Shown: positions 16,328 through 49,056 of the stretch, one piece after another
How the letters are laid out: every line of letters starts with the position of its first letter
How positions within the stretch are numbered: the first letter of the stretch is position 1
Position numbers and translations under genes: made by a program
Notes under the pieces: generated by a model
Databases searched by the model: none
What the model saw: the letters and a program-made list of their open reading frames with translations, nothing else
Told to the model about the DNA's origin: nothing
Virus record (IMG/VR): IMGVR_UViG_2529292852_000001
Span: 32,714 to 96,713 of that record
Strand: one strand, 5' to 3'
Origin: a virus
Lineage: Duplodnaviria; Heunggongvirae; Uroviricota; Caudoviricetes
Length of the DNA: 64,000 nucleotides

Positions 16328-17704
16328 CTAAATATTTTCCATTTTCGTTTCTAGCATTCCATTTACATGATATAAGCTAACAATGTTTTTAACTGTGCTA
16401 GATTTACCACTTTGAAGAATAACGCTTTTCCCTCTACTAATAACACTTTTAACTCTTTCAATTCTGTTAGTTTTGGTATTTAGCACAACATCATGTGGTC
16501 TTAATTGGTAGTGATTTCGTCTAATCGAAACACGCCCCTTTTTAACTTTTTCTTTTCTAAATTGTCTTAAATTGGTGTAATTAAGCTCTCTTGAACGTCT
16601 AGTTCTACCTGAACTTAACTCTTTACCAGCTTTTTGCTTACCATCACGGCTATCAATATATTTAGCGTCATAAAATAATTGCAACACTCGGTTATTATTC
16701 CTTAACTTTTGTCTTGAATAAATATTATTTGTTCTAAAAGTTGTATCAGTCCCACCAGCGATCACAAAAGCGTCATTTAAATGTGATTTTTCAATCTCAT
16801 ACTTTTGTCTTAAGTTAGCGGTTAGATAACCTTGGGTTGTCGTATATTCATCAAAATAATCACTTAATCTTGCTGCTAAAATACTCATAAAGTAAGCACC
16901 ACGATAATCAAGCATCTTTTGTCGATTTTCTCTCAACTTAGCTAAGATACCGTTATTATGGTTAGCTTGATTATGATTAATATCTGACAGTAAAACTAAA
17001 TTATCTGGCTGATTAGATCCACCATCTTTTCTTTGAACTAAGTGATGGACTCTTAATTGACTAGCTGGATATTGTTTACCATCTAAAGCATCACGATAAT
17101 TATCTCTAGCTAGGAGATAATCTTTAATCGTCTTAAAACCATACATTTTGCCTTTTTGATATTGCCACCCTTTAATGTTTGGGTTTAATAATTTTTGATT
17201 GTCGAATGGTGTAACTTCAACGACTAAATTAGTAATTGGCAAAAACGTATATAAGCGTTTGATTTCTTTAATTGTAAAATCTAATCTATGTTGAATACTA
17301 GGAGCTAACCAACCGTCTTTGTGTCTGCGATTATCAAATCTAGCCTTACGGTATCTTAAACGATTTCTTCTAGTTCGTCTTGATTCACGTCTACTAGTAA
17401 TCCTATCTTTTTCTGATTTTCTTAGACTTTCTGACACATAATATTCACGGTTGTTACCCACAACTGATAAACCTAAGTGGAAACCAGCGTCTACTCCTAG
17501 TGTTAAATCTTGAGTATTTGTAGTAACAGGTCTAACAAATTGGATAGTATTTCTACTATTTCCGTACCATTTTGCTTGACCTGTTTTTAACCAACGGCGA
17601 ACCATACCTAATCTTGAAGTTGGCATGAGTGGTGTACCGTTGGAGTCTACTACATAAATATAATCAACTTTTTTAATTTTTGACATCATGTCAACTCCTT
17701 TCAA
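16328..17704 (-). CDS. iscB: IscB RNA-guided nuclease (PLMP domain, RuvC-I, Arg-rich bridge helix, HNH, RuvC-III). True start probably MMSKIKK at ~17689
   Basis: PLMP motif (NGTPLMPTSR), RuvC-I GVDAGFHLGLSVV, bridge RRESRRTRRNRLRYRKARFDNRR, HNH LRVHHLVQRKDGGSNQPDNLVLLSDINHNQ. The RBS AAAGGAG lies inside the annotated 5' end. Confidence 0.8.
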   Translation of the reverse strand: MKGVDMMSKIKKVDYIYVVDSNGTPLMPTSRLGMVRRWLKTGQAKWYGNSRNTIQFVRPVTTNTQDLTLGVDAGFHLGLSVVGNNREYYVSESLRKSEKDRITSRRESRRTRRNRLRYRKARFDNRRHKDGWLAPSIQHRLDFTIKEIKRLYTFLPITNLVVEVTPFDNQKLLNPNIKGWQYQKGKMYGFKTIKDYLLARDNYRDALDGKQYPASQLRVHHLVQRKDGGSNQPDNLVLLSDINHNQANHNNGILAKLRENRQKMLDYRGAYFMSILAARLSDYFDEYTTTQGYLTANLRQKYEIEKSHLNDAFVIAGGTDTTFRTNNIYSRQKLRNNNRVLQLFYDAKYIDSRDGKQKAGKELSSGRTRRSRELNYTNLRQFRKEKVKKGRVSIRRNHYQLRPHDVVLNTKTNRIERVKSVISRGKSVILQSGKSSTVKNIVSLYHVNGMLETKMENI

Positions 17705-17949
17705 TCATAATTCGCACCTAACATAAAGTTGGTACGTGTGTACCCTTCGCCAATGTTATAGGTTGGTTTAATGTTAATTACACTAAGCCTGAACTCAGCT
17801 TTGTTTAATAATCAACCGTAGTGTTTGAAACTAGGGTGGCATTCCAAAGTACCTATTTATTCAACCCTAACGTAGTTATTTAAAACTTAGGCTAATCAAC
17901 CAGCTTGTATTTCTACAAGCCACCTACCTTAGTCGGCGGTTCTGTTGAC
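17705..17949 (-). ncRNA. Putative IscB omega-RNA scaffold (upstream of iscB, guide expected at the LE junction)
   Basis: ~240 nt immediately 5' of iscB, near-identical to 36947-37194 in copy 2. IscB omega-RNAs are known to be encoded at this position. Confidence 0.5.
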
Positions 17950-24203: not shown

Positions 24204-24454
24204 CTTCGTTCTTGAAGAAATCTATAATACAATTCTATCATGAAGAGGAGCTTAAGGGTTGGAAAATTTCGTTAAAAATAGTTTACAAAAAGTATGTTAA
24301 ATCAAGTGCTTAATATTTAGAGTAACTTAGCTCCAAATGTTTTTGTAGCTTAATCCATTTAGATATGTATATAAAAAGTAGCATTTTTCCATTGTATCTT
24401 ATGCCATAAGTTGCTAAAATGTATTGTAGAGAAAATAATTTTGAGGTAATAAAA

Positions 24455-25336
24455 ATGAATAAAAATGACAAGAAGTTATCAGCTTTAATTAAAAACCGCA
24501 AGCAAGCTTTTAGCCTCACAATTGGTAACCAAAAAGGTGGAGTTGGTAAAACCGCTAGTTCCGTTATCTTGGCTTACCTGTTAGCTAAAAAAGGTTTTAA
24601 AGTCTTAGTCGTTGACCTTGACCCTCAAGCTAATGCAACCAAAATGCTTATTAATACTGGTATGCGTCAAGCACAAGAACAAGGAGTTGAAAAAGACTTT
24701 AGCTTTAATAAGACCTTGCTTGATGCTATTTTAGAAAAAAACATTGACAATACAATTATCAATATTATCGACAACCTTGATATTGTGCCTTCTGATGATT
24801 CGTTTGAAGACTTTGCTCGATATGTTTATTTAAACTCTGGAGCTAAAGATGATTATAGCTTCGATCATATCTTAGAACCATTGTTTGCAGATATTAAGCC
24901 AAAGTATGATTTCATCGTTTTAGATACTCCCCCTTCTAACAAGGAAATTAGATCTAATGCGGTTGTAATGACTGACTACGTTTTAATCAGCTTACAAACT
25001 CAAGATGATTCACTAGCTGGGGCTAACCTTTATATCTCAGCTTTAGTTGACCTAAAGCAAAAATATGATTTACCTGTTGAAGTCGTTGGTGTACTCGCCA
25101 CTTTAAACGATCCTAGAAACACGGTAGACAAGCTCGTGCTTAAACGTGCAATTGAACTATTTAGCGATGAAGTTGTCTTTAAGCACGTCTTACCTAATAT
25201 GTCACGTATGAAACGGTTCCCTATTCAAGGGGTAGGTACATCAGATCGTTTTGACAAGTATGTTTTAGATGAATACGAAGTTGTGGCCAACGAATTGATT
25301 AGCAAGATATTATTCTACGAAGAAGGGAAAGATTAA
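24455..25336 (+). CDS. parA: ParA/Soj-family partition ATPase
   Basis: Deviant Walker A GNQKGGVGKTAS. Start taken at ATGAATAAAAATGAC (24455, after GAGGT) rather than the longer listed ORF. Confidence 0.85.
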   Translation: MNKNDKKLSALIKNRKQAFSLTIGNQKGGVGKTASSVILAYLLAKKGFKVLVVDLDPQANATKMLINTGMRQAQEQGVEKDFSFNKTLLDAILEKNIDNTIINIIDNLDIVPSDDSFEDFARYVYLNSGAKDDYSFDHILEPLFADIKPKYDFIVLDTPPSNKEIRSNAVVMTDYVLISLQTQDDSLAGANLYISALVDLKQKYDLPVEVVGVLATLNDPRNTVDKLVLKRAIELFSDEVVFKHVLPNMSRMKRFPIQGVGTSDRFDKYVLDEYEVVANELISKILFYEEGKD

Positions 25337-25640: not shown

Positions 25641-25945
25641 TGTCCCATGCACGCATAGATATCATCCAGATAACAATATTGTATCATTTATGGCTCCAGT
25701 CTGTCCCATGCACGCATAGATAGCGGTCTGTCCCATGTACACATGGGTAGTACAATAACGATTTCTCAACTGCAATGGCTCTTAGAGTCTATCCCATGTA
25801 CGCATGGGTAGCACTGCCTAATTCTTCTAGTTCTTCTTCATTTTTTAGTCTATCCCATGTACGCATGGGTAGTACCGAATAACTTTAACTGGAAGATCCG
25901 CATCTGTAGTCTATCCCATCGTACTAGGGTTTTGAGAACTCCTAA
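25641..25945. repeat. Six imperfect ~22-27-bp direct repeats with an internal CCCATG..CATGGG palindrome (centromere-like parS/iteron array)
   Basis: TGTCCCATGCACGCATAGATA (x2) and GTCTATCCCATGTACGCATGGGTAG (x3, plus one degenerate). Spacings are 61, 26, 59, 71 and 60 bp. Confidence 0.5.
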
Positions 25946-26074: not shown

Positions 26075-27328
26075 CTAGGCTAATTGTTCTAATCCTTTGT
26101 CTAGGATATTCTTTGCTGCGTTTATATCACGTATGTGGTAAGTGTTGCATACAGGACAAGTCCAACTCCTATCTTTTAGCGTTAGTTTATCAGTATCTTT
26201 TGTTCCCATAACATGCCCACATTTATTACATGTTTGTGTAGTATTTTTAGGGTTTATGGTAACAAAAGTTTTACCATATAATTCAGCTTTGTATTCTAAC
26301 TTCTGTAGGAATATTCTCCAACCCACATCAGAAATTGACATAGCTAAAGCGTGATTTTTCAACAAATTCTTACTTCTTAGATTTTCAGCCACAACCAAAT
26401 CGTGGTTCTTGATAAGTGTTATTGACATCTCGTCTAAGAATTTATTACGCTGATTACGCACTCTATTCATGAGTTTTGATACCACCATACGTTGTTTTTG
26501 ATAATTTTTGCTATCACGTAAAGAACGTCCCTCTTTCTTGGCTCTGACTTGTCTACGTGATAACTTGCGTTGTGCTTTGGCTAACCTACCCTTGATTGTT
26601 CTATAAAATCTTGGGTTAGCTACAACATTGCCTTCACTTGTTGTTAAGAAGTTATCTGTGTTTAAGTCAATTCCAACTTGAGAGTTAGTTTTAGACAGTT
26701 CCTTAACAAATGGTGTATTAGAACCTAACTGCATAGAAACGTAATAGATACCAAAAGCATTCTTAGAAATAGTAGTTGTACCAATTCTAATATCGTCTTT
26801 ATTATCTAGTAGCTTTCTATAAGAACCACTTACACGAATAATGCCCAGCTTAGGAATATTGATATGTTTATTGTCTACAAATCTAATTGAGCCAGTCCAC
26901 ATATTAACTGGTTTCTTGTTTTTATAAGTCCCACTTGTCTGATACTTTTCTTCATAAGTCTTCTTATGAAAGTTTGGTGTACCAGCATTGTGTACTTTTC
27001 TAAACATGTTCCACGCAGCTTTATATGAACGCATTGCCATATTGCGACAATAACTATCAATATAAGGGTGGTTCATATAGTAATAATGGTTTGCTAAATG
27101 GTTTTGAGCTTTCTTGCGTTGTTCTAATTCTTTAATACGATCTTGAACCATATCAATAGGTAACTTAACTTGTTTAAGTTGATATAACTCTTTATCAATT
27201 GCAACCATAGCGTTGTATACAGCCCTAGATACATCACTGTTCATCTTGATGATTTGTTTTTGCTTTGTACTAGGGTGAATACACATTTTTAAACCATAGT
27301 GATATTTCAACTCACTCATCGTTTTCAT
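26075..27328 (-). CDS. tnpB: TnpB (IS605 OrfB-type RNA-guided nuclease), 417 aa
   Basis: RuvC-I GIDLNTDN, RuvC-II LVVAENL, zinc finger CNKCG...CPVCN, RuvC-III RDINAAKNI. Confidence 0.85.
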   Translation of the reverse strand: MKTMSELKYHYGLKMCIHPSTKQKQIIKMNSDVSRAVYNAMVAIDKELYQLKQVKLPIDMVQDRIKELEQRKKAQNHLANHYYYMNHPYIDSYCRNMAMRSYKAAWNMFRKVHNAGTPNFHKKTYEEKYQTSGTYKNKKPVNMWTGSIRFVDNKHINIPKLGIIRVSGSYRKLLDNKDDIRIGTTTISKNAFGIYYVSMQLGSNTPFVKELSKTNSQVGIDLNTDNFLTTSEGNVVANPRFYRTIKGRLAKAQRKLSRRQVRAKKEGRSLRDSKNYQKQRMVVSKLMNRVRNQRNKFLDEMSITLIKNHDLVVAENLRSKNLLKNHALAMSISDVGWRIFLQKLEYKAELYGKTFVTINPKNTTQTCNKCGHVMGTKDTDKLTLKDRSWTCPVCNTYHIRDINAAKNILDKGLEQLA

Positions 27329-27420
27329 TTTCTCACCTTCTTTCTAATTAATTTTTTGAGGCTTGTTTCAACCTCTATTAGCACTAACGGAATCGAACCG
27401 CCATAAAACAACCATGTGTA

Positions 27421-27589
27421 GTCTTATACCTATGTCATTTAACTTAGGTTCAGAACAAAGTATGACTTAAAAGTCCCTTATTTAAAGTCTTGCACCTATG
27501 CCATTTAACCTAGGTTCAGAACGTGGCGGTAGCGAAAGCAACTCATACCAAGGTCTTGCACCTACATCAATTCAACTTAGGTTCAGAAC
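27421..27589 (-). CRISPR. CRISPR-like mini-array A: 3 repeats (36-37 nt), 2 spacers (30 nt)
   Basis: Plus-strand repeat GTCTT(A/G)CACCTATG(T/C)CATTTAAC(C/T)TAGGTTCAGAAC at 27421, 27487 and 27553. Unique spacers. Confidence 0.6.
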
Positions 27590-27730
27590 CGTTGTTTTCT
27601 AACCTATATTTAATTGTGACATAAGCTTCTTGGGAACTCTCCATACTTGCGATGTACTATTGTTAGATTAACTAACTAACACCGTAGAGGTTAGAGATAT
27701 TAACCAAGCTGAAAAGAACAAGCGCCCTCC
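27590..27730 (-). ncRNA. Conserved scaffold A (~140 nt) with an anti-repeat at the array-proximal end. tracrRNA/omega-RNA-like
   Basis: One of 8-9 homologous copies. The array-proximal 30 nt (minus strand CTTATGTCACAATTAAATATAGGTTAGAA) is complementary to the repeat. Confidence 0.5.
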
Positions 27731-27783
27731 TACTAGCACTAGTGGAATCGAACCACTATTGTAGCAACCATGCGTGCCAAATT
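27731..27783 (-). ncRNA. tRNA-like mini-element (acceptor-like stem + T-arm mimic, no anticodon arm)
   Basis: Minus strand GGCACGCATGGTTGC...AGTGGTTCGATTCCACTAGTGCT. T-loop GTTCGATTC. Confidence 0.45.
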
Positions 27784-28057: not shown

Positions 28058-28197
28058 CGTTGTTTTCTAACCTATATTTAATTGTGACATAAGTTTCTTG
28101 GGAACTCTCCATACTTGCGATGTTTTACCGTTAGATTAACCAACAACACCGTAGAGGTTAGAGATATTAACCAAGCTGTCGAGAACAAGCGTCCTCC
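28058..28197 (-). ncRNA. Conserved scaffold B with anti-repeat
   Basis: Homologous to scaffold A (CGTTGTTTTCTAACCTATATTTAATTGTGACATAAG...GAGAACAAGCGTCCTCC). Confidence 0.5.
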
Positions 28198-28862
28198 AAA
28201 TTTTATTATCTAACGCTCAAATAACACTTCAAACATGAGCTTTCACTCTGCTTATAATGTGCTACCGTTTATTATGTGAACGTCCCACAAGGTCTGAGCA
28301 ATAAGGAGCTACCCTATTACTTCCTCGTGCTATTTAACGACGTGGCTACTATGATAAGTACCAACTTTCAGGCGATCATTCAGAACTTTGTTTTTATTTT
28401 AATCTTAATTGTTGTATGTGGATTTTAAGTCCAAGACAACAATTACTGTCTGTAATCTTGATGCCATTGCCCTACTTGTTCTTGTTTCCGTTGTTATAGC
28501 TCAGTTTCCTAAGCGTCAAGGCAAACACTGTCTTTGGTTATTCCCATCGCATCACTTAGCTACCACACTAAGCTGCCAATGGGTTATTCCCACACCGTGA
28601 GCGTCTATTTTATCCAGTGCCAACGGTCAACAAAGCACTAACGTCACACACTTCCACATACGTACCAAACGTCCTAGCTTTTACCAGGTTTGATAGTTAT
28701 TGCTAACAATCTCTCGACTTATCTAAGCTATCACTCAGACTACATCTACTACGAATTACAGGTACATATCCGACAAGATTTGACTAAAACCCTTATGCAA
28801 TCGGTTATGCTTGAAGCGTTATTTGAACGGTAAATAATTTCTGATTCTGGATCCTCTATATA
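28198..28862. other. Unassigned ~665-nt noncoding segment, higher GC than its surroundings. Possible structured RNA
   Basis: No convincing ORF (the only listed one, 63 aa, looks spurious). Sits between array C and scaffold B. Partial resemblance to 40965-41221. Confidence 0.2.
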
Positions 28863-29228
28863 GCCTTACACCTATGTCATTTAACATAGGTTCAGAACAG
28901 AAAACATTCTTTTCTTTTATAGAATATTGTCTTCAACCTATGTCATTTAGCCTAGGTTCAGAACTAAAAACGATGAAAGCGATAGATGATTTTGGTCTTA
29001 TACCTATGTCATTTAACTTAGATTCAGAACCCCACCACAGTTGCAAAACAAACTCAAATAGTCTTACACCTATGCCATTTTACTTAGGCTCAGAACCAAT
29101 CTCGCTATTATCCAAGAATGTAATTAGTCTTACACCTATGTCATTTAACCTAGGTTCAGAACCATCATGAAAGGAGGTGAGATTGTGGCAGAGTCTTGCA
29201 CCTATGCCATTTAACTTAGGTTCAGAAC
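28863..29228 (-). CRISPR. CRISPR-like mini-array C: 6 repeats (36 nt), 5 spacers (29-30 nt)
   Basis: Repeats at 28863, 28929, 28995, 29061, 29127 and 29193. On the minus strand it lies directly downstream of the scaffold, which lies directly downstream of the tnpB stop. Confidence 0.65.
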
Positions 29229-29369
29229 CGTTGTTTTCTAACCTATATTTAATTGTGACATAAGCTTCTTGGAAACTCTTCGGACTTGCAATATCTCTCT
29301 GTTAGATTAACTAACTGATACTGTAGAGGTTAAAGATATTTACCAAGCTGTCGAGAACAAGCGTCCTCC
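29229..29369 (-). ncRNA. Conserved scaffold C with anti-repeat, in the position expected for a TnpB omega/reRNA (immediately 3' of tnpB)
   Basis: Homologous to the other scaffolds. Begins (minus) GGAGGACGCTTGTTCTCGACAGCTTGG right after the tRNA-like element that overlaps the tnpB stop. Confidence 0.5.
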
Positions 29370-29370
29370 T

Positions 29371-29436
29371 ATAACGATGGCAGGAATCGAACCTGCATCT
29401 GTTACCTTGCCTTACCGTTAGGCTACATCGCTACTT
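29371..29436 (-). ncRNA. tRNA-like element with acceptor stem, D-arm (GCCTAACGGTAAGGC) and T-arm but no anticodon arm. Overlaps the tnpB stop codon
   Basis: Minus strand AGCGATGTAGCCTAACGGTAAGGCAAGGTAACAGATGCAGGTTCGATTCCTGCCATCGTT. Only 13 nt lie between the D- and T-arms. Confidence 0.5.
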
Positions 29437-30873
29437 GTTTCTTCTTTAGGTGTGGTTTTATTTTTAGCTCCACACTTAGTACATGTCCACTTTTCATCTT
29501 GCGTGATAACCGTACGTTCATGCCCACATTTCTTGCAAGTATCATTCATCTTATCTAGTAAATCCAAGCCTTCATCTAAGATGTTTTTAGCTGCGTTTAT
29601 GTCTTGATCATGGTGAGAATTACATACAGGACAAGTCCAATTACGATCCTTTAATTTAAGGTTGTGCTTAATGTAACCACAAGTATGGCAACGCTTTGAA
29701 GTTGGTGACCAACGATCAATAAACACAATCTTTTTATCAGCCCAGTCCATCATGTAAGTGAGCGTATCTCTAATTTCACGAAAGTTTGATCTAGTGATTG
29801 CTCTAGCACGGTATTTGTTCTTTTCCATGTCTGAAACAGCTAGGTCTTCCATAACGATTACATCATATTCATTAGCAAGCTTTGAACATGTCTTTTTAAT
29901 ATAGTCTTTTTTCAAGTTCTTAATACGTAAGTGTAACTTAGCAATTTTCTTTTTGTTCTTTTGGTAATTGCTACGTTCAGCTAAAGTAGGAACATGCTTT
30001 GGAATTAAGGCTTTTTTATTATCTTCTTCAATAATTGCGACCTCTTTTTTCCATTGTTCATACTTACGACTACGCTTTATGTTTTCTTTTTCAATCTTTT
30101 GTTCTAATTTTCTGATTTTGTCATATGGTAATTGATACCTTGTGCCATCTTGTAAAACAATATGACTATTACCTGTTACGTTTAAGTCAATGCCAGCTGC
30201 TAAACCAGTTCTAGGACGATCTACAGTATGTTCAGCTTGTTCAAACACAATTGACGCATACCAAGTATCGCTAGATTCATGCTTAATTGTTACTTTATAC
30301 AAACGACCATCACTAGGATAATGGTTAGCAATTTCAATTAAGCCTAACTTAAACTTCTTTAATTTACCTACTCTAAGGTAATTTCCATCTTCGCTTATAC
30401 CACAAACTTGAGCGCCTGAAGTATAGCTTCCGTTATTGTCAACGTCCATCGTTGTTTTAAATCTAGGAATACCAAAGTGTCTAGGGTTTTTCAAATGGTT
30501 GCTCATCGCTGTTTTTAAAGTACGTAAAGTGTAACTATACATACTAGTGTCAGCATCTTTCAAAGTCCAACCACTTTTAAATACAGTTTCATCAGCATCG
30601 TAAATTGCCTTAGTTGATAATTCACGTACACCTTTGAACAAATCACGTTGTTCTTCCCATGACATTCTTTCAATACGTTTGTAAACTTCTTTGCTTTGTT
30701 TATTTTTAGGTAAAGCTTGAACTTCATCTAATTCACTAACTGGCTTATAAACTTCAGCTAGTAACGCATTCCACATTTTGATGTTAGCAAACATATTAAA
30801 CGTTAAGTATGCTTGTTGTTCTTTAGTAGGATAAATTCTAATTCTACGACTTTCTAAAACTTTTTCTTCCATT
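29418..30873 (-). CDS. tnpB: TnpB paralog (~485 aa) with an extra C-terminal zinc ribbon. The annotated 551-aa ORF is probably over-extended at the 5' end
   Basis: RuvC-I GIDLNVTGN, RuvC-II VIVMEDL, ZnF CHTCG...CPVCN, RuvC-III QDINAAKNI, then a second ribbon CKKCG...CTKCG. The first 67 codons of the listed ORF are homologous to the noncoding scaffold. The internal Met (MEEKVLESRR) has RBS AAGGAG 9 nt upstream. Confidence 0.75.
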
Positions 30874-30879
30874 TTTTCC

Positions 30880-31073
30880 AACTCCTTTTTTGAGTTAACA
30901 TGTAATTTACGCATAGTCTTTTGGCTGACTACACCTAACGCTAACCCTTCCACAATGGACGTCTTTATTTGTGCCATCAGCACTTTTTGGGAACTCTTCA
31001 ACAAAGAAATGCAATTAGCAACACTTTGTTTGCGAAGATGTTTACCAAACTGTGAAGAGCAAGCACCCTCCAA
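30880..31073 (-). ncRNA. Decayed scaffold copy (5' leader of tnpB) without an adjoining repeat
   Basis: Minus strand GGAGGGTGCTTGCTCTTCACAGTTTGGTAAACATCTT...GAAGAGTTCCCAAAAAGTGCTGATGGCACAAATAAAG aligns with the scaffold 5' and 3' blocks. Confidence 0.45.
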
Positions 31074-31074
31074 T

Positions 31075-31138
31075 AACGATGGTAGGAATCGAACCTACGT
31101 CGCCTCGCTTTGCTCTACCATTGAGCTACATCGTTGTT
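31075..31138 (-). ncRNA. tRNA-like element (7-bp acceptor, canonical D-arm TAGCTCAATGGTAGAGCA, T-arm, no anticodon arm), immediately upstream of the tnpB leader
   Basis: Minus strand AACGATGTAGCTCAATGGTAGAGCAAAGCGAGGCGACGTAGGTTCGATTCCTACCATCGTTA. Confidence 0.5.
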
Positions 31139-31165: not shown

Positions 31166-31399
31166 TTCTTACACCTATGTCAATTCAACTAGGTTCAGAA
31201 CATTTGATTGCACTATCGAACTCATCACGTCGTCTTACACCTATGTCAATTCAACTAGGTTCAGAACTATCCTAAGAGTAATTGGAGTCCACTCGAAGTC
31301 TTACACCTATGTCAATTTAACTAGGTTCAGAACGGATCTCCCAAGCGAAGGAATCGAAGGCACGTCTTGCGCCTATGTCAATTTAACTAGGCTCAGAAC
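31166..31399 (-). CRISPR. CRISPR-like mini-array D: 4 repeats (variant GTCTTACACCTATGTCAATTCAACTAGGTTCAGAAC), 3 spacers of 30 nt
   Basis: Repeats at 31166 (5' end degenerate), 31232, 31298 and 31364. Confidence 0.6.
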
Positions 31400-31539
31400 C
31401 ATTGTTTTCTAACCTATATTTAATTGTGACATAAGCTTCTTGGGAACTCCCCATGCTTGCGATGCCTTACTGTTAGTTTAACCAACAACACCGTAGAGGC
31501 TAGAGATATTAGCCAAGCTGTCGAGAACAAGCGTCCTCC
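31400..31539 (-). ncRNA. Conserved scaffold D with anti-repeat
   Basis: Homologous to scaffolds A-C. Confidence 0.5.
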
Positions 31540-31592
31540 TATTAGCATTAGCGGAGTCGAACCACTATTAAAGTAACCGTACATGCCAACCT
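31540..31592 (-). ncRNA. tRNA-like mini-element
   Basis: TATTAGCATTAGCGGAGTCGAACCACTATTAAAGTAACCGTACATGCCAACC (plus strand). Confidence 0.4.
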
Positions 31593-31669
31593 ACAATAAA
31601 CATAAAGGAGATGCAGGCTAAATTCCTGCGATAGACACAATGTACGCAGGGGTTAAGAAGAAACCCCCT

Positions 31670-31720
31670 ATTAGCACTGGTAGAATCGAACCACCATTAA
31701 GCAACCATACGTGCCAACCT
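31670..31720 (-). ncRNA. tRNA-like mini-element preceded by a GGGG..CCCC hairpin
   Basis: TTAGCACTGGTAGAATCGAACCACCATTAAGCAACCATACGTGCCAACC. Confidence 0.4.
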
Positions 31721-31774
31721 TGAGTAAATCATTCAGTACAATCACACCGCCGCCACGAACCCTAGATGGCGGCA

Positions 31775-31945
31775 GTCTTACACCTATGTCAATTCAACTA
31801 GGTTCAGAACCCTAACCTATATTTAATTGTGACACAAGTTTCTTGGGAACTCTTCTTACTTACAATGTTGCTAACTAAGTAATCTAAGTTGCAACACTGT
31901 AGAGGCTAAAAATATTAACCAAGCTGTCGAGAACAAGCGTCCTCC
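31775..31945 (-). ncRNA. Solo repeat (31775-31810) fused to a scaffold copy (31811-31945)
   Basis: One perfect D-type repeat followed directly by CCTAACCTATATTTAATTGTGACACAAG...GCGTCCTCC. Confidence 0.5.
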
Positions 31946-31996
31946 TATTAGCACTAGTGGAATCGAACCACTACAAGATAACCGTATGTACTAGCC
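31946..31996 (-). ncRNA. tRNA-like mini-element
   Basis: TATTAGCACTAGTGGAATCGAACCACTACAAGATAACCGTATGTACTAGCC. Confidence 0.4.
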
Positions 31997-32067
31997 TCAT
32001 AAGTAACTTTATAGAAAAGGAGTTTGTTACATAACCACTCATACATGGGAGTATTATTACACTCCCT

Positions 32068-32123
32068 ATTAGCATAGCTAGAATCGAACTAACTTTTATT
32101 CCAAAATGCTTATATTTGCTAAG
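32068..32123 (-). ncRNA. tRNA-like mini-element (variant type, as at 40806-40860) preceded by a GGGAGT..ACTCCC hairpin
   Basis: ATTAGCATAGCTAGAATCGAACTAACTTTTATTCCAAAATGCTT. Confidence 0.35.
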
Positions 32124-32132
32124 TTATGATAA

Positions 32133-32432
32133 GTCTTACACCTATGTCAATTCAACTAGGCTCAGAACCTCGTCTAAGGCTTTTTAATTGTTCTTCTGGT
32201 CTTACACCTATGTCATTTAACCTAGGTTCAGAACTGAAAGGAGATGATTAAATTGAGCAATATAGTCTTACACCTATGTCAATTCAACTAGGTTCAGAAC
32301 CTACTTTGAAATCACTACATCATAACCACGGTCTTACACCTATGTCAATTCAACTAGGTTCAGAACCCTTGACTAATAGTGATAAACGTATCAGATGTCT
32401 TACACCTATGTCAATTCAACTAGGTTCAGAAC
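32133..32432 (-). CRISPR. CRISPR-like mini-array E: 5 repeats (36 nt), 4 spacers (30 nt)
   Basis: Repeats at 32133, 32199, 32265, 32331 and 32397. Confidence 0.65.
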
Positions 32433-32575
32433 CGTTATTTTCTAACCTATATTTAATTGTGACATAAGTTTCTTGGGAACTCTTCTTACTTGCAATGGCG
32501 CTAACTAAGTAATTTTAATTGCGACACTGTAGAGGCTAAAGATATTAACCAAGCTGTCGAGAACAAGCGTCCTCC
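32433..32575 (-). ncRNA. Conserved scaffold E with anti-repeat (middle section is of the variant family)
   Basis: CGTTATTTTCTAACCTATATTTAATTGTGACATAAG...CTGTAGAGGCTAAAGATATTAACCAAGCTGTCGAGAACAAGCGTCCTCC. Confidence 0.5.
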
Positions 32576-32640
32576 AATAGCGATGGCAGGAGTCGAACCC
32601 ACTTGATTGCTCTACCGTTGAGCTACACCGCTACACCAAA
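32576..32640 (-). ncRNA. tRNA-like element with a canonical D-arm (TAGCTCAACGGTAGAGCA) and T-arm, no anticodon arm
   Basis: Minus strand GTAGCGGTGTAGCTCAACGGTAGAGCAATCAAGTGGGTTCGACTCCTGCCATCGCTATT. Confidence 0.45.
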
Positions 32641-32981
32641 ATGTACATAACGAATAAAGATAAAGTTAAGATTATAAGGGTTGTGCTAATGCTTACAGGA
32701 ACGATAGAGGCTTACATGTAGTTTACTGATGTCCCTGTAGGCTTAACCCTTTGCCTTACGTTTATTATGATACACTATCTCGCACCCTAAGTCAAATGTT
32801 TTTGTATACTTTTTTAAAATAAAATTCAAAAAAGTTGAAAAATAAAAAAAGCCACAAGCCTAGGTAACCCTAAGTGTAGCTTTCTTTTACACAGCAAAAC
32901 AAACATTAAGGAGCCTTAACTGTTTTTCGCTAGTTTTATTCTAGCATAAACATTAGTGTTTTCCCAGCGGTTGTAGCTGAG

Positions 32982-33173: not shown

Positions 33174-33425
33174 TTTGTAACGCTTCTTTCAATTGTTTTT
33201 CTTTACTTTTGAGTCTATGCCATGTATTATTGTATATGAAAAGAGAGCAAACAGTTGCGACCTGCTTGCCCTCAAGCGTGAATGTTTAAGACTATTGTGG
33301 TGTATAAGCTGGTTACGATTATTTAAAATCGTGATTAGCTTTTTTTATAAACTAGGTAACCCTAGATGCAGCTTTCTTTTATTGTATGTGATATAATGTA
33401 TTTGCAGCATTACATATGACTGACT

Positions 33426-35569: not shown

Positions 35570-36946
35570 CTAAATATTTTCCATTTTCTTTTCCAACATT
35601 CCATTTACATGATATAAGCTAATTACATTTTTAACTGTGCCATATTTACCGTTTTGGAAAACAATGCCCTTTCCTCTACTATTAACTCCTTTGACTCTTT
35701 CAATCCTGTTAGTTCTGGTATTTAACACAACATCATGTGGTCTTAATTGATAATGACCTCTTCTAATCGAAACACGACCCTTTTTAACTTTTTCTTTTCT
35801 AAATTGTCTTAAATTGTCATAATTAAGCTCTTGGGATCGTCTAGTTCTCCCTGAACTTAACTCTTTACCAGCTTTTTGTTTACCATCGCGACAATCAATA
35901 TACTTAGCGTCATAAAACAACTGTAATATACGATTATTATTCCTTAACTTTTGTCTCGAATAAACATTGTTTGTTCTAAGGGTTGTATCAGTTCCACCAG
36001 CAATCACAAAAGCGTCATTTAAGTGAGATTTTTCAATCTTATACTTTTGTCTTAGGTTAGCGGTTAGATAACCTTGAGTTGTCGTATATTCATCAAAATA
36101 ATTGCTTAATCTTGTTGCTAAAATGCTCATAAAATAAGCTCCACGATAATCAATCGTCTTTTGCCGATTTTGTCTTAATTTAGCTAAGACACCATTATTG
36201 TGATTAGCTTGATTATGGTTAATATCTGACAATAAAACTAAGTTATCTGGCTGATTAGAACCACCATCTTTTCGCTGCACTAAGTGATGAACTCTTAATT
36301 GACTAGCTGGATATTGTTTACCATCTAAAGCATCACGATAGTTATCTCTAGCTAGTAGATAATCCTTAATCGTCTTAAAACCATACATCTTACCTTTTTG
36401 ATACTGCCAGGCTTTAATATTTGGATTAGCTAGTTTTTGATTATCAAATGGTGTAACTTCAACGACTAAATTAGTAATGGGTAAAAACGTATATAAACGT
36501 TTGATTTCTTTAATTGTAAAATCTAATCTGTGTTGAATACTAGGAGCTAACCAGCCGTCTTTACGTCTACGATTATCAAATCTAGCTTGACGGTATCTTA
36601 AATGTCCTCTTCGAGTACGTCTTAATTCTCTTCGACTAGTAATTCGATCTTTTTCTGACTTTCTTAAGCTTTCTGACGCATAATATTCACGTTGGTTTCC
36701 AACAACAGATAATCCTAAGTGAAAACCAGCATCTACTCCTAAAGTTAAATTTTGTGTATTTGTAGTAACAGGTCTGACAAATTGGATAGTCTTACGACTA
36801 TTTCCGAACCATCTTGCTTGACCTGTTTTTAACCAACGACGCACCATGCCTAATCTTGAAGTTGGCATGAGTGGTGTGCCGTTGGAGTCTACTACATAGA
36901 TATAATTAAATTTTTTGATTTCTGACATCATGCCAACTCCTTTCAA
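35570..36946 (-). CDS. iscB: IscB RNA-guided nuclease, copy 2
   Basis: Same motifs as copy 1 (PLMP, RuvC, HNH), with a handful of substitutions. Confidence 0.8.
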   Translation of the reverse strand: MKGVGMMSEIKKFNYIYVVDSNGTPLMPTSRLGMVRRWLKTGQARWFGNSRKTIQFVRPVTTNTQNLTLGVDAGFHLGLSVVGNQREYYASESLRKSEKDRITSRRELRRTRRGHLRYRQARFDNRRRKDGWLAPSIQHRLDFTIKEIKRLYTFLPITNLVVEVTPFDNQKLANPNIKAWQYQKGKMYGFKTIKDYLLARDNYRDALDGKQYPASQLRVHHLVQRKDGGSNQPDNLVLLSDINHNQANHNNGVLAKLRQNRQKTIDYRGAYFMSILATRLSNYFDEYTTTQGYLTANLRQKYKIEKSHLNDAFVIAGGTDTTLRTNNVYSRQKLRNNNRILQLFYDAKYIDCRDGKQKAGKELSSGRTRRSQELNYDNLRQFRKEKVKKGRVSIRRGHYQLRPHDVVLNTRTNRIERVKGVNSRGKGIVFQNGKYGTVKNVISLYHVNGMLEKKMENI

Positions 36947-37194
36947 TAATTGTAATTCGCACCTAACATAAAGTTGGTACGTGTGTACCCTTCGCCAATG
37001 TTATAGGTTGGTTTAATGTTAATTACACTGAGCCTGAACTCAACTCTGTTTAATAATTAACCGTAGAGTCTAAGACTAGGGTGGCATCTTAGAGTACCTA
37101 TCTATTCAACCCTAACGTAGTTACTTAAAACTTAGGCTAATCAACCAGCTTGCATTTCTACAAGCCACCTACTTTAGTCGGTGGTTCTGTTGAC
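36947..37194 (-). ncRNA. Putative IscB omega-RNA scaffold, copy 2
   Basis: Conserved with 17705-17949. Confidence 0.5.
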
Positions 37195-39557: not shown

Positions 39558-39719
39558 GTCTTAGCTTATGCTTTCAACTAGGATCAGAACCTATATCCAA
39601 TTGTGACATAAGCTTCCTGGGAACTCTTTGTACTTGCAATGCCGCTAACTAAGTAATCTAAATTGTAGCACTGTAGAGGTTGAAGATATTAACCAAGCTG
39701 AAAAGAACAAGCGTCCTTC
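39558..39719 (-). ncRNA. Degenerate solo repeat (39558-39590) + scaffold copy (39591-39719), directly upstream of gene 38782-39537
   Basis: ...TTCAACTAGGATCAGAAC then CTATATCCAATTGTGACATAAGCTTCCTGGGAACTC...GAAAAGAACAAGCGTCCTTC. Confidence 0.45.
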
Positions 39720-39786
39720 AAATAGCGATGGCAGGAGTCGAACCTGTATCTCATGCCTTGCTCTACCGTTGAGCTACATCGCTACG
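39720..39786 (-). ncRNA. tRNA-like element with a canonical D-arm and T-arm, no anticodon arm
   Basis: Minus strand GCGATGTAGCTCAACGGTAGAGCAAGGCATGAGATACAGGTTCGACTCCTGCCATCGCT. Confidence 0.45.
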
Positions 39787-39869
39787 CTTACACTTTTTAT
39801 TTTAGGGAGGAAAAAGTGTAGCCCCATACACATTCCGATTAGTTGGCTCGCCCTTGTTTTTCAACAAGG

Positions 39870-40860
39870 ACAATTGGCACTGGTAGGATCGAACTACCAT
39901 TAAGCAACCGTGCGTGCCAACCGTGAATTAATGTTATGATTTATTTAGGGCTTATTTTTGCCCTATTGGCAAACAAGGAGTCGAACCTTGACGTCACAAC
40001 CGTGTTACCAACTGTATTTCCAAAGGTGAACTAACGAAATACAAGGAACTGTCTTGCAAACACCCACTCTTGTCAGATGTACAGTCTTAGTTTGTTTAAC
40101 AGTTCGTTTTGACTTTTTTCATGGCCCTGTACAGGAGGCAAAGCCCAGCACCAAAAACAACATAAGGTAGGTAGTTAGGATTAACCTTAACCTATTGGCA
40201 CTAGCAGAGTCGAACCGCTATGAAAGCAACCGTGCGTGCCAACTTATTGAGAGAAAAAACTTTAAAGGAAAGATATTTTTGTTGTCCCACTAGGGTTATT
40301 TTCGCCTTCGTTTTACCAAAGGCAATTAGCACCAGTGGAGTCGAACCACTGTAAAAGCAACCGTACGTGCCAACCAAATCATAAATATTAAATCAAGGAG
40401 TTATGTTAGTTAGAGTAATTTTTTTATTACTCTAAAGAGAAAAAGTTTTGAGTTTGTAGCTTAATGCTACAATTGGCACTAACAGAATCGAACTGTTACA
40501 AGACAACCATGCGTGCCAGCCGATAAGTAACTTTTAAAAAAGGAGTAATATACAACCATCTTAGGGTTTATTCAAGCCCTATTGGTGTTAGCGGAATCGA
40601 ACCGATATACAGCAACCATGCACACCAACCAATATTTTAAGAGTTTATATAATAAGGCATTTAAGCCTAAATAAGAGGAAATAGTTTTAGGGTTGTTACA
40701 CCCTATTGGTAGCCAAGGAATCGAACCTTGATACAACCACTCTACCAACCTATAAGTAATAGTTTAAGTGCAAGTGTGAATGCCACTGTGAAGCTTGTCA
40801 GTGGCAATAAGCATAGCTAGAGTCGAACTAGCTTTTATTCCAAAATGCTTGTTAGATAAA
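39870..40860 (-). repeat. Tandem array of 8 tRNA-like mini-elements (~48 nt each: 5-bp acceptor-like stem, 3-bp mini D-hairpin with a YGGT loop, T-arm with a GTTCGAYTC loop), spaced 60-120 nt apart, each followed on the minus strand by an AGGGTT..AACCCT hairpin
   Basis: Units at ~39873, 39962, 40193, 40323, 40468, 40573, 40697 and 40806. Stems covary while loops are conserved. Confidence 0.55.
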
Positions 40861-40870
40861 CCTGTGATAT

Positions 40871-40964
40871 GTCTTATCTTATGTTTGTTTTAGCTAAGTT
40901 CAGAACATAACTCTCTACACAGTATTCTGTCTTATACTTACGTCATTTTAACTAGGTTCAAAAT
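40871..40964 (-). CRISPR. Two degenerate repeats with a 22-nt spacer (array remnant)
   Basis: GTCTTATCTTATGTTTGTTTTAGCTAAGTTCAGAAC and GTCTTATACTTACGTCATTTTAACTAGGTTCAAAAT. Confidence 0.35.
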
Positions 40965-41221
40965 GTCAAGAAATATATATATCCTATGTCAACTGCCCCA
41001 GTCTAAAGACATGGAGCTTGTAACTCACGACCTTACGGTCAGTGGTAATAACGCAACTTCGTTGCTCCCACACTATACATGGCTACATCATTGGGTGGTT
41101 GACAACACCCACTTAACTAACACGTTTACGCATTAGTTGTTAATTCAAATTTAGGTTGTTCTTGTCCACTAATATACTGAGTTCCAAGTAATTGGATATT
41201 CATTGATATGGTGGTCTTTTA
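40965..41221. other. Unassigned ~260-nt noncoding segment, relatively GC-rich. Possible structured RNA
   Basis: No ORF. Lies between a scaffold and the repeat remnant. Weak similarity to part of 28198-28862. Confidence 0.2.
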
Positions 41222-41377
41222 CCTATAATAATTCAATTAGGATCAGAACCTATATTTAATTGTGACACAAGCTTCTTGGGAACTTTCCATGCTTGCGATG
41301 TTTTACCGTTAGATTAACCAACGTTACACCGTAGAGGCTAGAAATATTTACCAAGCTGTCAAGAACAAGCGTCCTCC
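41222..41377 (-). ncRNA. Degenerate solo repeat + scaffold copy
   Basis: ...AATTAGGATCAGAAC then CTATATTTAATTGTGACACAAGCTTCTTGGGAACT...GTCAAGAACAAGCGTCCTCC. Confidence 0.45.
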
Positions 41378-41900
41378 AATTAGCACTAACGGAATTGAAC
41401 CGTTATTACAGCAACCATGCGTGCCAACTCAATAATTACTATAGAAAGGTTTTACTATGGCAAAACACTAGCATTACCATCTTTTAGGGTTTATCCAACC
41501 CTATTGGCACTAGCGGAGTCGAACCGCTATGAAAGTAACCGTACGTGCCAGCCGTAAGTCGAATCGAATATATAAAGGAGTAAAGAGATGCGAGTATTCG
41601 CAATCTTTTAGGGTCTGTTTCAACCCTATTGGCAGCCAAGGACTTGAACCTTGATGCAACCATTCTGCCAACCAATTTAATTAATTCAATAAAATAAAGG
41701 AGAATAGGGTCTATGGCAACCCTATTGGCACTGGTAGAATCGAACCACCATAAAAGCAACCATGCGTGCCACACCCAGTTAGTAAGTAACATATAATAAA
41801 AGGAGCGATGCAAACAATGTTTGCAGCCTAGAGCTAAGCTTAACCTAGCTCTAATTAGCAGGTAGGGAATCGAACCCTAGCTTAAGCAACCATGCCTGCT
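41378..41900 (-). repeat. Tandem array of 5 more tRNA-like mini-elements with preceding AGGGTT..AACCCT hairpins
   Basis: Units at ~41385, 41498, 41617, 41716 and 41846 (e.g. GGCACTAGCGGAGTCGAACCGCTATGAAAGTAACCGTACGTGCCAGCC). Confidence 0.55.
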
Positions 41901-41909
41901 AGAAGATGA

Positions 41910-42971
41910 CTAAAATGGTAAGTCATCGTTACTGATAAAATCATCTTTTGGTTTATTGTCAGTATAGTTATCTAAAAAGCTTGAATAATCTTCTTTTTTT
42001 GTTTCATTTTCTGTAGCTGTAGAATTAGTATCAACTACTGGTTGATCGTTTAGAACTGATACAATCTTGCTCCAGTCTTCTGGTTGACCTAAGAATTTAG
42101 TTAATGTTTTGTTATCAACTACTCCTAAATTGCCTAATCTTTTAATTGTATTTGCTTTTACCACATTATGAGCAAGTAGTTTAGCTAACATTTGATCGTT
42201 TTCTTCAATTTCATTTTTATAATCAGCAATCAAATCAAGAATTTTCTTAGCTTTAACATTCATTCTCTCTTTTTTTTCTTCTGATAATTCTTTCAATGAA
42301 AATTTAGGAATAAAAGATCCACCGTTGGAATTAGGTGCAAAGTATTGTTCATCACTGTTTGAAGTAAATTCTTCAACCTTTAATAACTTACCTTTAATAA
42401 GTTCAGGTGCATTTCTAAAATCAAGATGTAATTGATTTAATAATCCAAAATACTTTTTGGGTGTAAGTTCTAAATAAGCTAAAACAATATTATTATTGAC
42501 TTTAGAAAAACTGGCTAAGTCTTCGTCTGTATTAATTAGTTTGTTATCTTTTTTAGTTAACAAACCAAAAATTCTACGTCGTTCTTTAACCTCTTCATTA
42601 GGGAAATTTTCCTTAAAGTTGTTACTACCACCTGGGTAAATACCTAAACTAGAACTTGTGCGTCCTTGAGCAGTATCTTTGTAGCGGTATAAATCATATA
42701 CACCTAGCAAAGATGGATTTGAAGAAATTCCTTTATCGCTTTTAGCAACTTTAGTCATAAATAATGGAATAAATTCATACGATTTAGCTTGAAGCATTTG
42801 TCCACGTTCTTTGTTATTTTCAGGAAATTGGATAGTTAACATACCTGATTGCCCATTATGGCGAAGATTTAAAATATCTACACCATTAGGTCTTAAAGGC
42901 ACTCCTGTTCGTGTTCCTTCATCTACATTTACCATTAAAGAGTCTAGTGTGTTCATAATAAAGTCCTCCAA
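41910..42971 (-). CDS. Hypothetical protein. Its stop directly abuts the tRNA-like array
   Basis: 353-aa ORF with RBS GGAGG. No recognised motif. Confidence 0.45.
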   Translation of the reverse strand: MEDFIMNTLDSLMVNVDEGTRTGVPLRPNGVDILNLRHNGQSGMLTIQFPENNKERGQMLQAKSYEFIPLFMTKVAKSDKGISSNPSLLGVYDLYRYKDTAQGRTSSSLGIYPGGSNNFKENFPNEEVKERRRIFGLLTKKDNKLINTDEDLASFSKVNNNIVLAYLELTPKKYFGLLNQLHLDFRNAPELIKGKLLKVEEFTSNSDEQYFAPNSNGGSFIPKFSLKELSEEKKERMNVKAKKILDLIADYKNEIEENDQMLAKLLAHNVVKANTIKRLGNLGVVDNKTLTKFLGQPEDWSKIVSVLNDQPVVDTNSTATENETKKEDYSSFLDNYTDNKPKDDFISNDDLPF

Positions 42972-48449: not shown

Positions 48450-49056
48450 ATGAAAGCAAATGAAGTAATGAAATTATTACAAATTAGTCGTTCCACTTTA
48501 CTAAGATGGCGAAAAGATGGCATTTTAAAAGCTACTAAATTGCCTTCTGGGCAATATGATTGGGACGCTAATTCTGTTTTTAAAATATTAAATAAAGGTG
48601 AAATTCGTGGTGTTTATTTATATGCTAGAGTAGTCTACACCTAAACAAAAACAAGACCTTGAAAACCAAATTGAAAACCTGCAAAGTTTTGCGATGAAAA
48701 ATGGTTATCAAGTTAAAGGTCTATACAAAGATATAGCTAGTGGAATTTCTTTTGAAAGAAGAAAGGAGTTTTTTGAATTATTAGACCTTGTAATTGGTGG
48801 TAAAGTATCAAAGGTTATTATCACCTACAAGGATAGATTAAGTCGTGTTGGTTTCGATCTGTTTAAATACTTATTTTCCAAGTATCATACCGAGATAATT
48901 GTGATGTCAGAATTAACCGATAAAAAGGCAGACCAACAAGAAATATTTGAAGAAATCATTAGCTTGTTGCACGCATTTTCAATGAGAATGTACTCGAGTA
49001 GAAGAAAGAAAATTAAAGAAGCTTTGGAAGATAAGGAGGTGAACAAGGATGGTTAA
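48450..49056 (+). pseudogene. tnpA: IS607-type TnpA serine recombinase, disrupted by a +1 frameshift at the catalytic-Ser codon (~48633)
   Basis: ORF1 ends ...LYARVVYT*, and the next frame reads STPKQKQDLENQ...MKNGYQV. Deleting G48633 restores YARVSTPKQ. Confidence 0.55.

Follow-up and report, generated by a model that had tools for sequence, protein, structure and literature searches.

A stretch of 64,000 nucleotides (nt) from the IMG/VR record IMGVR_UViG_2529292852_000001 (positions 32,714-96,713; hereafter the window, in whose positions all coordinates are given) carries at least 23 tRNA-like elements that lack an anticodon arm, and all of them lie on the minus strand. Two of these elements flank tnpB-485, the gene of a TnpB nuclease (TnpB-485), and members of the family stand directly before guide-RNA scaffolds, before the tnpB leader and before a series of small hairpin RNAs. 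The most likely explanation is that long minus-strand transcripts are processed by the host's RNase P and RNase Z, which would excise the elements and so set the 5' ends of the guide scaffolds. The anatomy of the locus, the covariation within the elements, the fixed junctions behind them, their conservation in relatives and a spacer matching plasmids were observed directly.

The element directly 5' of the tnpB leader (31074-31135, minus strand) matches the Rfam tRNA model RF00005, whose gathering score is 29, at 52.0 bits (E 2.7e-8), and the element over the tnpB stop codon (29372-29432, minus strand) matches it at 49.2 bits (E 1.7e-7). Both follow the model over its full length except that 8 nt (31074-31135) or 7 nt replace the 17-nt anticodon arm. 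Two further matches, at 39723-39783 (45.2 bits) and 32578-32632 (38.1 bits), likewise lack this arm, and in all four (38-52 bits) the model is aligned end to end with the arm reduced to 1-8 nt. These four elements form class A. The minimum free energy structure predicted by RNAfold consists of acceptor, D and T arms in three of them, including both that flank tnpB, while in 39723-39783 the acceptor and D arms are kept and the T arm is not formed. Covariation also supports both flanking elements; in the class A comparison the D stem of the stop-codon element reads GCCT/AGGC, a compensatory difference from GCTC/GAGC. The compared relatives include Ligilactobacillus salivarius ZSA5 'plasmid unnamed2' (NZ_CP123973.1; L023), the record IMGVR_UViG_2791355382_000001 (L001, L012-L014) and shorter metagenome contigs that cover only parts of the locus (L015-L018). 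The 31074-31135 element is conserved in L001, L015, L017 and L023.

Both flanking elements had been proposed in a first-pass annotation of the DNA, and the Rfam scores and agreeing folds bear them out with coordinates shifted by only 1-4 nt. The minus-strand order given there (array D, tRNA-like element, leader and tnpB, tRNA-like element, scaffold C, array C) also holds. The same annotation saw in this order a tRNA-punctuated polycistron with tnpB bracketed by the two elements. Anatomy, RNA covariation and junctions of 0-1 nt fit the punctuation, but the pair has no special bracketing relation to tnpB, as both elements belong to the family of at least 23.

When compared with a tRNA, class A elements possess an acceptor stem of 7 bp, a D arm with GG in its loop and a T arm that has both the T-psi-C loop and the G53-C61 pair, and the shorter class B elements have kept the GG along with the acceptor stem and T arm. 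None has an anticodon stem-loop with a readable anticodon, and ARAGORN called no tRNA in the window or in L001 and L014-L017. They are therefore tRNA-like elements and not tRNA genes. The Rfam models of transfer-messenger RNA (tmRNA) did not match them.

A strict search for the T arm (5-bp T stem, TTCRANT loop) returned 20 sites, all 20 on the minus strand, which together with the two additional armless Rfam matches excludes a chance resemblance. Under looser criteria, the four class A elements, which have a D arm, are joined by about 19 elements that measure 42-47 nt and belong to class B or to a short variant. The class B plan comprises an acceptor stem (TGGCAC./.GTGCCA), a remnant of the D loop (..ATGGTTGC), a short linker and the T arm. 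Family members measure 42-62 nt and share the 7-bp acceptor stem, a TTCGAWT T loop, G53-C61 and the GG of the D loop, and one copy (27378-27413) is truncated at its 5' end. Among 23 distinct class B sequences, 91.7% of the pair cells hold standard pairs, compared with 26-47% after a shift of the partner by 1-3 columns. Changes on both sides occur in eight of 12 pairs, the observed covariation score was reached in none of 500 shuffles, and G53-C61, the T loop and the GG are invariant. The corresponding values for eight class A sequences are 99.2% paired cells against 28-51% when slid, with double changes in five of 16 pairs. G-U pairs are frequent in the stems and are compatible only with an RNA of the minus strand, on which the structure of the elements appears to be under selection. 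The possibility that the conservation of class B and the AGGAG sequences complementary to CU-rich motifs reflect small open reading frames (ORFs) of the plus strand was rejected: no consistent start codons or ORFs were found, and the G-U covariation fits the minus strand alone. Scans with the class B motif detected it only in the ZSA5-type plasmid family, plus one chance match in an Acidobacteriota metagenome-assembled genome.

The position of the elements relative to the RNAs behind them is fixed. A hidden Markov model (HMM) built from eight scaffold copies was searched with nhmmer and yielded nine scaffold-type sequences in the window, the ninth being the tnpB leader. In eight of the nine, the leader included, only 0-1 nt separate the start from the discriminator of a preceding tRNA-like element, and the remaining one (scaffold B) starts 18 nt after a ROOL RNA. 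The same spacing of 0-1 nt is found for all scaffolds of the window type in L001/L012-L014, L015-L018 and L023, with the exceptions again following ROOL. At the tnpB stop, the discriminator A is position 29372 and abuts scaffold C, which resembles a trans-activating CRISPR RNA (tracrRNA) or omegaRNA (29232-29371, minus strand; nhmmer 1.8e-41; repeat family D3/D5), starts with UAGGAGG, forms a 5' hairpin from nt 4 and bears an anti-repeat at its 3' end. The scaffold sequence type is independent of the class of the preceding element, one scaffold headed by class B clustering with those headed by class A. Within the first 32 nt past the element, 22 of 23 downstream RNAs have a hairpin that begins 1-4 nt behind the junction, compared with 26% of control positions (Mann-Whitney p 7e-10), and the 23rd also opens with a hairpin. 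This hairpin is common to the scaffolds, the tnpB leader and the small RNAs, and its stems covary between copies. Besides guides, the elements head about 14 small hairpin RNAs unrelated to TnpB. As in tRNA punctuation, tRNA-like units thus stand exactly at RNA borders on a single strand.

The 3' ends of the elements agree with what is reported for RNase Z, which cuts 3' of the discriminator in CCA-less precursors and is inhibited by CCA or cytidines at that place (PMC1874595; PMC7479834). No copy encodes CCA. Every discriminator has a T behind it, and the RNA from there on reads U(A/U)G. In the structure of Bacillus subtilis RNase Z with tRNA, the acceptor stem and the T arm contact the enzyme, and the elements retain both of these parts plus the D-loop GG.

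tnpB-485 (29418-30872 including the stop, minus strand) encodes 484 amino acids followed by TAA, with Pfam OrfB_IS605 and a Cas12f1-like TNB domain, and scores 182.8 bits with the NCBIfam model guided_TnpB (cut-off 100). Its fold and sequence, its RuvC D-E-D triad (D229/E342/D424, invariant in 17 homologues) and its zinc ribbon are those of a TnpB; an extra zinc ribbon is located at the C-terminus. The nearest solved structure is ISDra2 TnpB (E 6e-28), and the similarity to LaTranC is weaker and confined to the C-terminal part (E 2.5e-15). None of the NCBIfam Cas12 models reached its cut-off with TnpB-485, and the PADLOC matches to Cas12u4 and Cas12f represent generic TnpB-level similarity, an unrelated second TnpB of the window scoring higher. 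Neither tnpA nor transposon ends were seen beside the gene, where only RNA modules adjoin, no HMM or end-hairpin search having been made for them.

The canonical omegaRNA starts within the 3' part of the ORF, stops at the right end of the transposon and has a single guide adjacent to it. Here only the tRNA-like element overlaps the ORF; scaffold C starts at 29371, after the element, and is followed by array C, with six 36-nt repeats and 30-nt spacers (28863-29228, minus strand). The tnpB leader (30873-31073, minus strand) occupies the position assigned to it earlier, but it is itself a decayed scaffold copy (scaffold HMM match at 31073-30963, E 2.4e-9; fold z -2.6), which retains the 5' hairpin and the long-range helix, while its 3' part is divergent and ends at the ribosome-binding site (RBS) and ATG. 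The consensus structure of the scaffolds contains 13 covarying pairs. Their 3' anti-repeat is predicted to form a duplex with the repeat in cis, and the scaffold with its first repeat would thereby constitute an omegaRNA-like unit.

The arrays consist of 36-nt repeats and 30-nt spacers, and 11 of 17 internal spacers are absent from close relatives. One spacer of array E (32301-32330, minus strand) matches 30/30 to at least eight small MOBV/MobQ-type L. salivarius plasmids. The matched site (positions 1501-1530 in both L024 and L025) is a non-coding inverted repeat just past a terminator; its sequence is CGTGGTTATGATGTAGTGATTTCAAAGTAG, and it has a TTTTTTA/T 5' flank (TTTTTTA for the module E target). 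The match suggests competition between plasmids and hints at a T-rich target-adjacent motif. Against 50,697 phage records, the spacers gave only a chance-level match. Two other spacers, 29163-29192 and 32235-32264 (both minus strand), read as antisense of an RBS with its start codon (…CACCTCCTTTCATG… and …CATCTCCTTTCA), which suggests that translation-initiation regions of genes are targeted. The locus shares with type V and TranC-like systems a RuvC effector adjoining an array, an anti-repeat scaffold and spacers that undergo turnover and include a match to foreign elements; cas1 and cas2 were absent from the 23 ORFs scanned, a scan that was not exhaustive for the window. Given the intact RuvC triad, the covarying scaffold, the predicted duplex, the spacer turnover and the plasmid match, the system looks active, and it looks like a TnpB-based weapon of one plasmid against others.

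The overlap with the tnpB stop was examined in the homologues. Position 1 of the element (29432) is the first base of codon 481, which confirms that the element begins within the final codons of tnpB. It covers four codons and the stop (AGC GAT GTA GCC TAA; S D V A stop), with the TAA at element positions 13-15, in the D arm. Most homologues end in ...CTKCNAKNK, and the additional tail TTPKEETSSDVA occurs only in the window clade, where L015 and L023 show in-frame length variants. Since the tail is confined to this clade and variable in length, the overlap is, on the comparison of homologues, a recent clade-specific read-through into the spacer and the tRNA-like element and not a conserved protein feature. 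A role of the tail as a selected protein feature was rejected on account of its absence from all homologues at ≤73% identity. Nor is the overlap the equivalent of the usual start of a TnpB guide RNA inside the ORF, with which the first-pass annotation had linked it.

The relatives retain much of this architecture. On the ZSA5 plasmid, the order is a tRNA-like element, scaffold and array; a tRNA-like element, leader and tnpB; the stop-overlapping tRNA-like element, scaffold and array; and ROOL, scaffold and array. IMGVR_UViG_2791355382_000001 shares this order, and L015-L018 show those parts that they cover. In the 73% relative (L019, L022), a tRNA-like element and a scaffold-derived leader precede tnpB, the acceptor stem having changed in a compensatory manner from AACGATG/CATCGTT to AACAATG/CATTGTT; a HEARO RNA and no tRNA-like element follows the tnpB stop. 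The 64-70% relatives (L002, L004, L009, L010) have the order tRNA-Arg, ROOL, scaffold, array and tnpB. A full-length odd tRNA ('Asp-ATC') lies 8-9 nt past their tnpB stop with no scaffold behind it, and tRNA-Ser comes next where the contigs extend far enough. The odd tRNAs after tnpB (L002 6433-7724; L004 6441-7815) include the 'Asp' with its ATC anticodon at position 37, one with a 4-nt anticodon and a 'Tyr' with ATA, and about 340 nt of apparently structured sequence separates them. The 50% relative (L008) shows a tRNA-like element, hairpin, scaffold, array and tnpB. With tRNA genes and ROOL surrounding the locus in these relatives, the system is concluded to have arisen within a tRNA/ROOL gene cluster, the tRNAs of the window clade having been reduced to armless elements, multiplied and fused to scaffolds. 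In the 48% relative (L006, 1787-6750), a 1066-aa SIR2_2 protein immediately precedes the TnpB-485 homologue, behind which come a scaffold homologue and an array of four repeats with a different 28-nt repeat; an integrase and tRNA-Ser are nearby, and this may be a form of the system that belongs to a defence island. No match was obtained when 185,579 species genomes were scanned for the scaffold pattern.

In the proposed processing, the modules would be co-transcribed, and each element would be cut by RNase P at its 5' border and by RNase Z directly behind its discriminator. Three kinds of products are expected, namely scaffold-plus-array guide precursors for TnpB-485, a tnpB mRNA with a scaffold-derived leader and a series of small hairpin RNAs. 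In Bacillus, a stem-loop near the 5' end protects RNAs from 5'-end-dependent exonucleolytic decay. Because RNase Z leaves 5'-monophosphate ends, such protection would be needed here, and each product, starting with U(A/U)G, could be shielded from 5'-exonuclease by the hairpin within 1-4 nt. The element at the tnpB stop would act as the head of guide module C. B. subtilis RNase Z acts poorly on precursors with long 5' extensions, and RNase P is thought to act first (PMC1874595). As this element begins within tnpB, an RNase P cut at 29433|29432 would take away the final four codons together with the TAA and produce a non-stop tnpB mRNA. A single transcript could then either release guide module C or be translated into TnpB, but not both, which resembles canonical TnpB, whose own mRNA is consumed to make the omegaRNA.

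Several observations weigh against this proposal. In the 48% relative, tnpB, scaffold and array occur without a tRNA-like element, and in the 64-70% relatives the scaffold follows ROOL with no fusion to a tRNA-like element. Most of the relatives compared are close (86-97% DNA identity), so part of the conservation reflects shared ancestry. Promoter- and terminator-like sites in the window are as numerous as in shuffled sequences and lend no support there to a single long transcript. If RNase P acts first (PMC1874595), the cut would cost tnpB its stop at 29432. Archaeal RNase Zs process arm-deleted pre-tRNAs, in which they are contrasted with the B. subtilis enzyme (PMC7479834), and that study does not establish that a bacterial RNase Z tolerates substrates without an anticodon arm.

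Other functions of the elements were weighed against the same data. An element might be retained as a compact cap, attached either to the scaffold at its 5' end or to the preceding RNA at its 3' end, which would favour exonuclease stability or ribonucleoprotein assembly, a stabilising role likened to that of synthetic tRNA scaffolds. Direct fusion and a selected structure would fit a cap equally well, and both classes fold stably. This explanation is nevertheless unlikely, as the elements also head about 14 RNAs unrelated to TnpB, and scaffolds placed after ROOL, or those of L006 and L002, work without one; the missing CCA, T74 and the separate 5'-proximal hairpin of each cargo are features of cleavage junctions that a cap does not need. 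The tRNA surroundings of the locus in the 64-70% relatives (Arg, Ser and odd tRNAs), the evident duplication and reshuffling of modules and the independence of scaffold type from element class can also be accommodated by DNA-level joints of recombination or duplication, derived from an ancestral tRNA cluster, along which the modules would be shuffled and which would have no role in RNA processing. This explanation is improbable, for compensatory and G-U changes preserve the helices on one strand only, the invariant T loop, G53-C61 pair and GG are dispensable for DNA recombination, and exactly the anticodon arm is lost in every copy.

The absence of an intact tRNA from the window, the lengths of 42-62 nt and the truncated copy at 27378-27413 would all be expected of functionless, decaying tRNA pseudogenes, whose junctions were fixed only by the duplication of tRNA-like and scaffold units. 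Such decay is very improbable given that at least 23 copies keep their acceptor and T stems paired through double substitutions, that the same junction is seen across element classes with a hairpin after every copy, and that the family is kept at 86-97% identity, with the leader copy present even in the 73% relative. The lowest probability is given to tRNA mimics that bind or titrate host factors (the CCA-adding enzyme, modification enzymes, toxins or sensors) and adjoin scaffolds only secondarily: the preserved elbow and the many tandem copies would suit this role, but without an anticodon arm they are no decoy for anticodon nucleases, and the 0-nt scaffold junction is left without explanation. 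The DNA-joint, pseudogene and mimic explanations are all opposed by the covariation, by the absence of exactly one arm from each copy, by a junction that has T74 and no CCA, and by the regular hairpin behind it; excision by RNase P and RNase Z is preferred.

The neighbouring modules repeat the arrangement on the same strand. Upstream of tnpB, module D (31166-31588) comprises a class B element (31542-31588), scaffold D (31403-31541) and array D with four repeats (31166-31399), and module E (32133-32632) comprises a class A element (32578-32632), scaffold E (32436-32577) and array E with five repeats (32133-32432). Between them are a class B element with a hairpin (31671-31716), a class B element with scaffold E1 and a single repeat (31775-31993) and a short tRNA-like variant with a hairpin (32069-32111). 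On the other side of tnpB, a ROOL RNA (28218-28828; Rfam 231 bits), the sole structure other than a tRNA-like element that precedes a scaffold, is followed by scaffold B (28061-28199) with array B, and then by a class B element (27733-27779), scaffold A (27592-27732) and array A (27421-27588). The 5'-truncated element with its hairpin (27378-27413) is located just upstream of the second tnpB (26075-27328); it abuts the last repeat of array A, and the hairpin and the RBS of the second tnpB come next. The idea that the last repeat lies exactly one spacer length before the next tRNA-like element was dropped, since this applies only to array D (30 nt), the distances elsewhere being about 0, 21, 34, 48 and 58 nt. 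The best promoter-like site, TTGACT-17-TATCAT (32767-32795, minus strand), is a consensus match only; it is located upstream of the whole 32.6-26 kb block and downstream of a terminator-like hairpin (33243-33273).

The ROOL RNA lies within the guide-RNA block, and the scaffold after it is separated by 18 nt in the window and by similarly short distances (up to about 30 nt) in relatives; the order of ROOL and then scaffold recurs in L001, L015, L016, L023, L002, L004 and L010. A long non-coding RNA of L. salivarius UCC118 is presumably ROOL. This ROOL-like RNA accounts for >75% of the non-rRNA reads of that strain, and the study describing it does not mention tRNA-like elements or CRISPR (PMC5643018).

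A tandem run of 13 elements (39588-41901, minus strand) begins 8 nt past the stop of the ORF at 41910-42971. It contains 12 class B or short-variant elements and then the class A element at 39723-39783 with scaffold F (39588-39722); 11 of the 13 head a short hairpin RNA and two head scaffolds (scaffold G, 41247-41379, and scaffold F). In the regions 39784-41901 and 31589-32068 (minus strand), 10 of 13 short RNAs between elements contain a CU-rich pentamer (CTCCT, TCCTC or TTCCTT) resembling an anti-Shine-Dalgarno sequence, mostly 22-34 nt before the next element. Shuffled sequences gave a mean of 1.5 such RNAs and reached 10 in 0/2000 cases, and none occurs on the other strand. These regions may represent a tRNA-punctuated array of small RNAs targeting Shine-Dalgarno sequences.

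The window contains five OMEGA-type nucleases in 64 kb. Two IscB genes (16328-17949 and 35570-37194, both minus strand; 458 aa, NCBIfam guided_IscB) are duplicates with 87-92% identity, each with a HEARO/omegaRNA upstream (130 and 135 bits); the second TnpB (26075-27328) is 26% identical to TnpB-485, and a third is encoded at 49049-50392. The ParA, the Alp7A-like actin, DnaB and the DnaD-like loader encoded in the window confirm a plasmid-type replicon. An FtsK-like protein is 90% identical to its counterpart on the ZSA5 plasmid (linear, 166.6 kb), and the locus is 86% identical. The 93-kb relative IMGVR_UViG_2791355382_000001 (96% identical) is a virus by its IMG/VR listing. The element family carries ParA, Alp7A-like actin, RepA, DnaB, FtsK/SpoIIIE and the antitoxin of a toxin-antitoxin system, and a complete relative was deposited as a linear plasmid. 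The identity with a known phage was dropped in view of the plasmid-type genes and of a megablast search of the locus against 50,697 phage records, which gave no match; the family is probably a plasmid or phage-plasmid despite the viral listing in IMG/VR. Downstream of the ParA gene (24419-25336), a palindromic unit of about 36 nt (AGTCTATCCCATGTACGCATGGGTAG) is present four times at 25698-25882, and the four units look like centromere (parS-type) repeats.

The whole may tentatively be read, with somewhat less than even confidence, as an RNA-punctuation system of a Ligilactobacillus megaplasmid. Derived from degenerate tRNAs, it would hijack RNase P and RNase Z to mature several scaffold-array modules for a TnpB that is turning into a CRISPR effector, tying the release of a guide to the inactivation of the tnpB mRNA, and a second set of elements would free about 12 anti-Shine-Dalgarno-like hairpin RNAs. 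If this is true, host tRNA-maturation enzymes would provide a third route to guide RNA ends beside effector self-processing and RNase III with tracrRNA, and the locus would show a transposon nuclease gaining several arrays on a plasmid that apparently fights other plasmids. It is present in the cultured strain L. salivarius ZSA5 (NZ_CP123973.1) and hence directly testable.

The locus combines properties of several known systems. Like ISDra2-type TnpB with its omegaRNA, it has a TnpB protein, a structured scaffold by the 3' end of the gene and a guide 3' of the scaffold. In contrast to that system, the scaffold lies outside the ORF, its 5' end is marked by a tRNA-like element and not placed inside the coding sequence, and eight further copies are present, each with a CRISPR-like array. 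With TranC and tracrRNA-dependent type V systems (LaTranC, Cas12f), it shares a RuvC effector of TnpB size, a scaffold that pairs with the repeat through its 3' end, and spacers against mobile elements, whereas its similarity to LaTranC is weak and C-terminal, no Cas12 model was passed, and several scaffold-array modules, all headed by tRNA-like elements or ROOL, accompany one effector. The locus shows the operational features of a tracrRNA-dependent type V or TranC-like system and, judged from its sequence, may stand outside the named subtypes.

For the elements themselves, the closest parallels lie elsewhere. In mitochondrial transcripts, tRNAs act as punctuation marks at which RNase P or RNase Z frees the adjacent RNAs; in the TMER units of the gammaherpesvirus MHV68, a viral tRNA-like element is followed by hairpins that give miRNAs, and hairpins likewise directly follow the elements of the 39.8-41.9 kb run. 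Those systems are eukaryotic, organellar or viral, while the present one belongs to a bacterial plasmid, its cargo consists of guide scaffolds, an mRNA and small hairpin RNAs, and its cleavage is predicted. The tRNA-like domain of tmRNA and minihelices of the acceptor and T arm have only a reduced D region and lack an anticodon arm, yet enzymes that process tRNA ends still recognise them. The elements have the same acceptor stem and T arm, reduced D region and missing anticodon arm, and unlike tmRNA they have no mRNA-like domain and no encoded CCA.

In full-text literature searches, natural fusions of tRNA-like elements with guide RNAs of TnpB or CRISPR were not found, only engineered ones. 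Xie and colleagues reportedly engineered polycistronic tRNA-guide RNA (tRNA-gRNA) arrays in 2015. Other engineered designs include a Haloferax icrRNA flanked by t-elements (PMC4326828) and a pre-tRNA-like CRISPR RNA for Cpf1 (PMC6037731). In these designs, too, a tRNA or tRNA-like unit lies directly against the guide, RNase P and RNase Z set the ends without Cas proteins, and several guides can be carried by one transcript. They are man-made, however, and use full tRNAs or t-elements with single guides, while the locus described here is natural and plasmid-encoded, with armless elements of 42-62 nt that head a scaffold and a whole array and are proposed to be cleaved. If this holds, the class B units of 42-47 nt would give bacterial applications of TnpB or Cas12 a very compact tag for processing multiplexed guides, and the locus would be the first natural counterpart of the engineered tRNA-gRNA arrays, found in a system in transition from TnpB to CRISPR.

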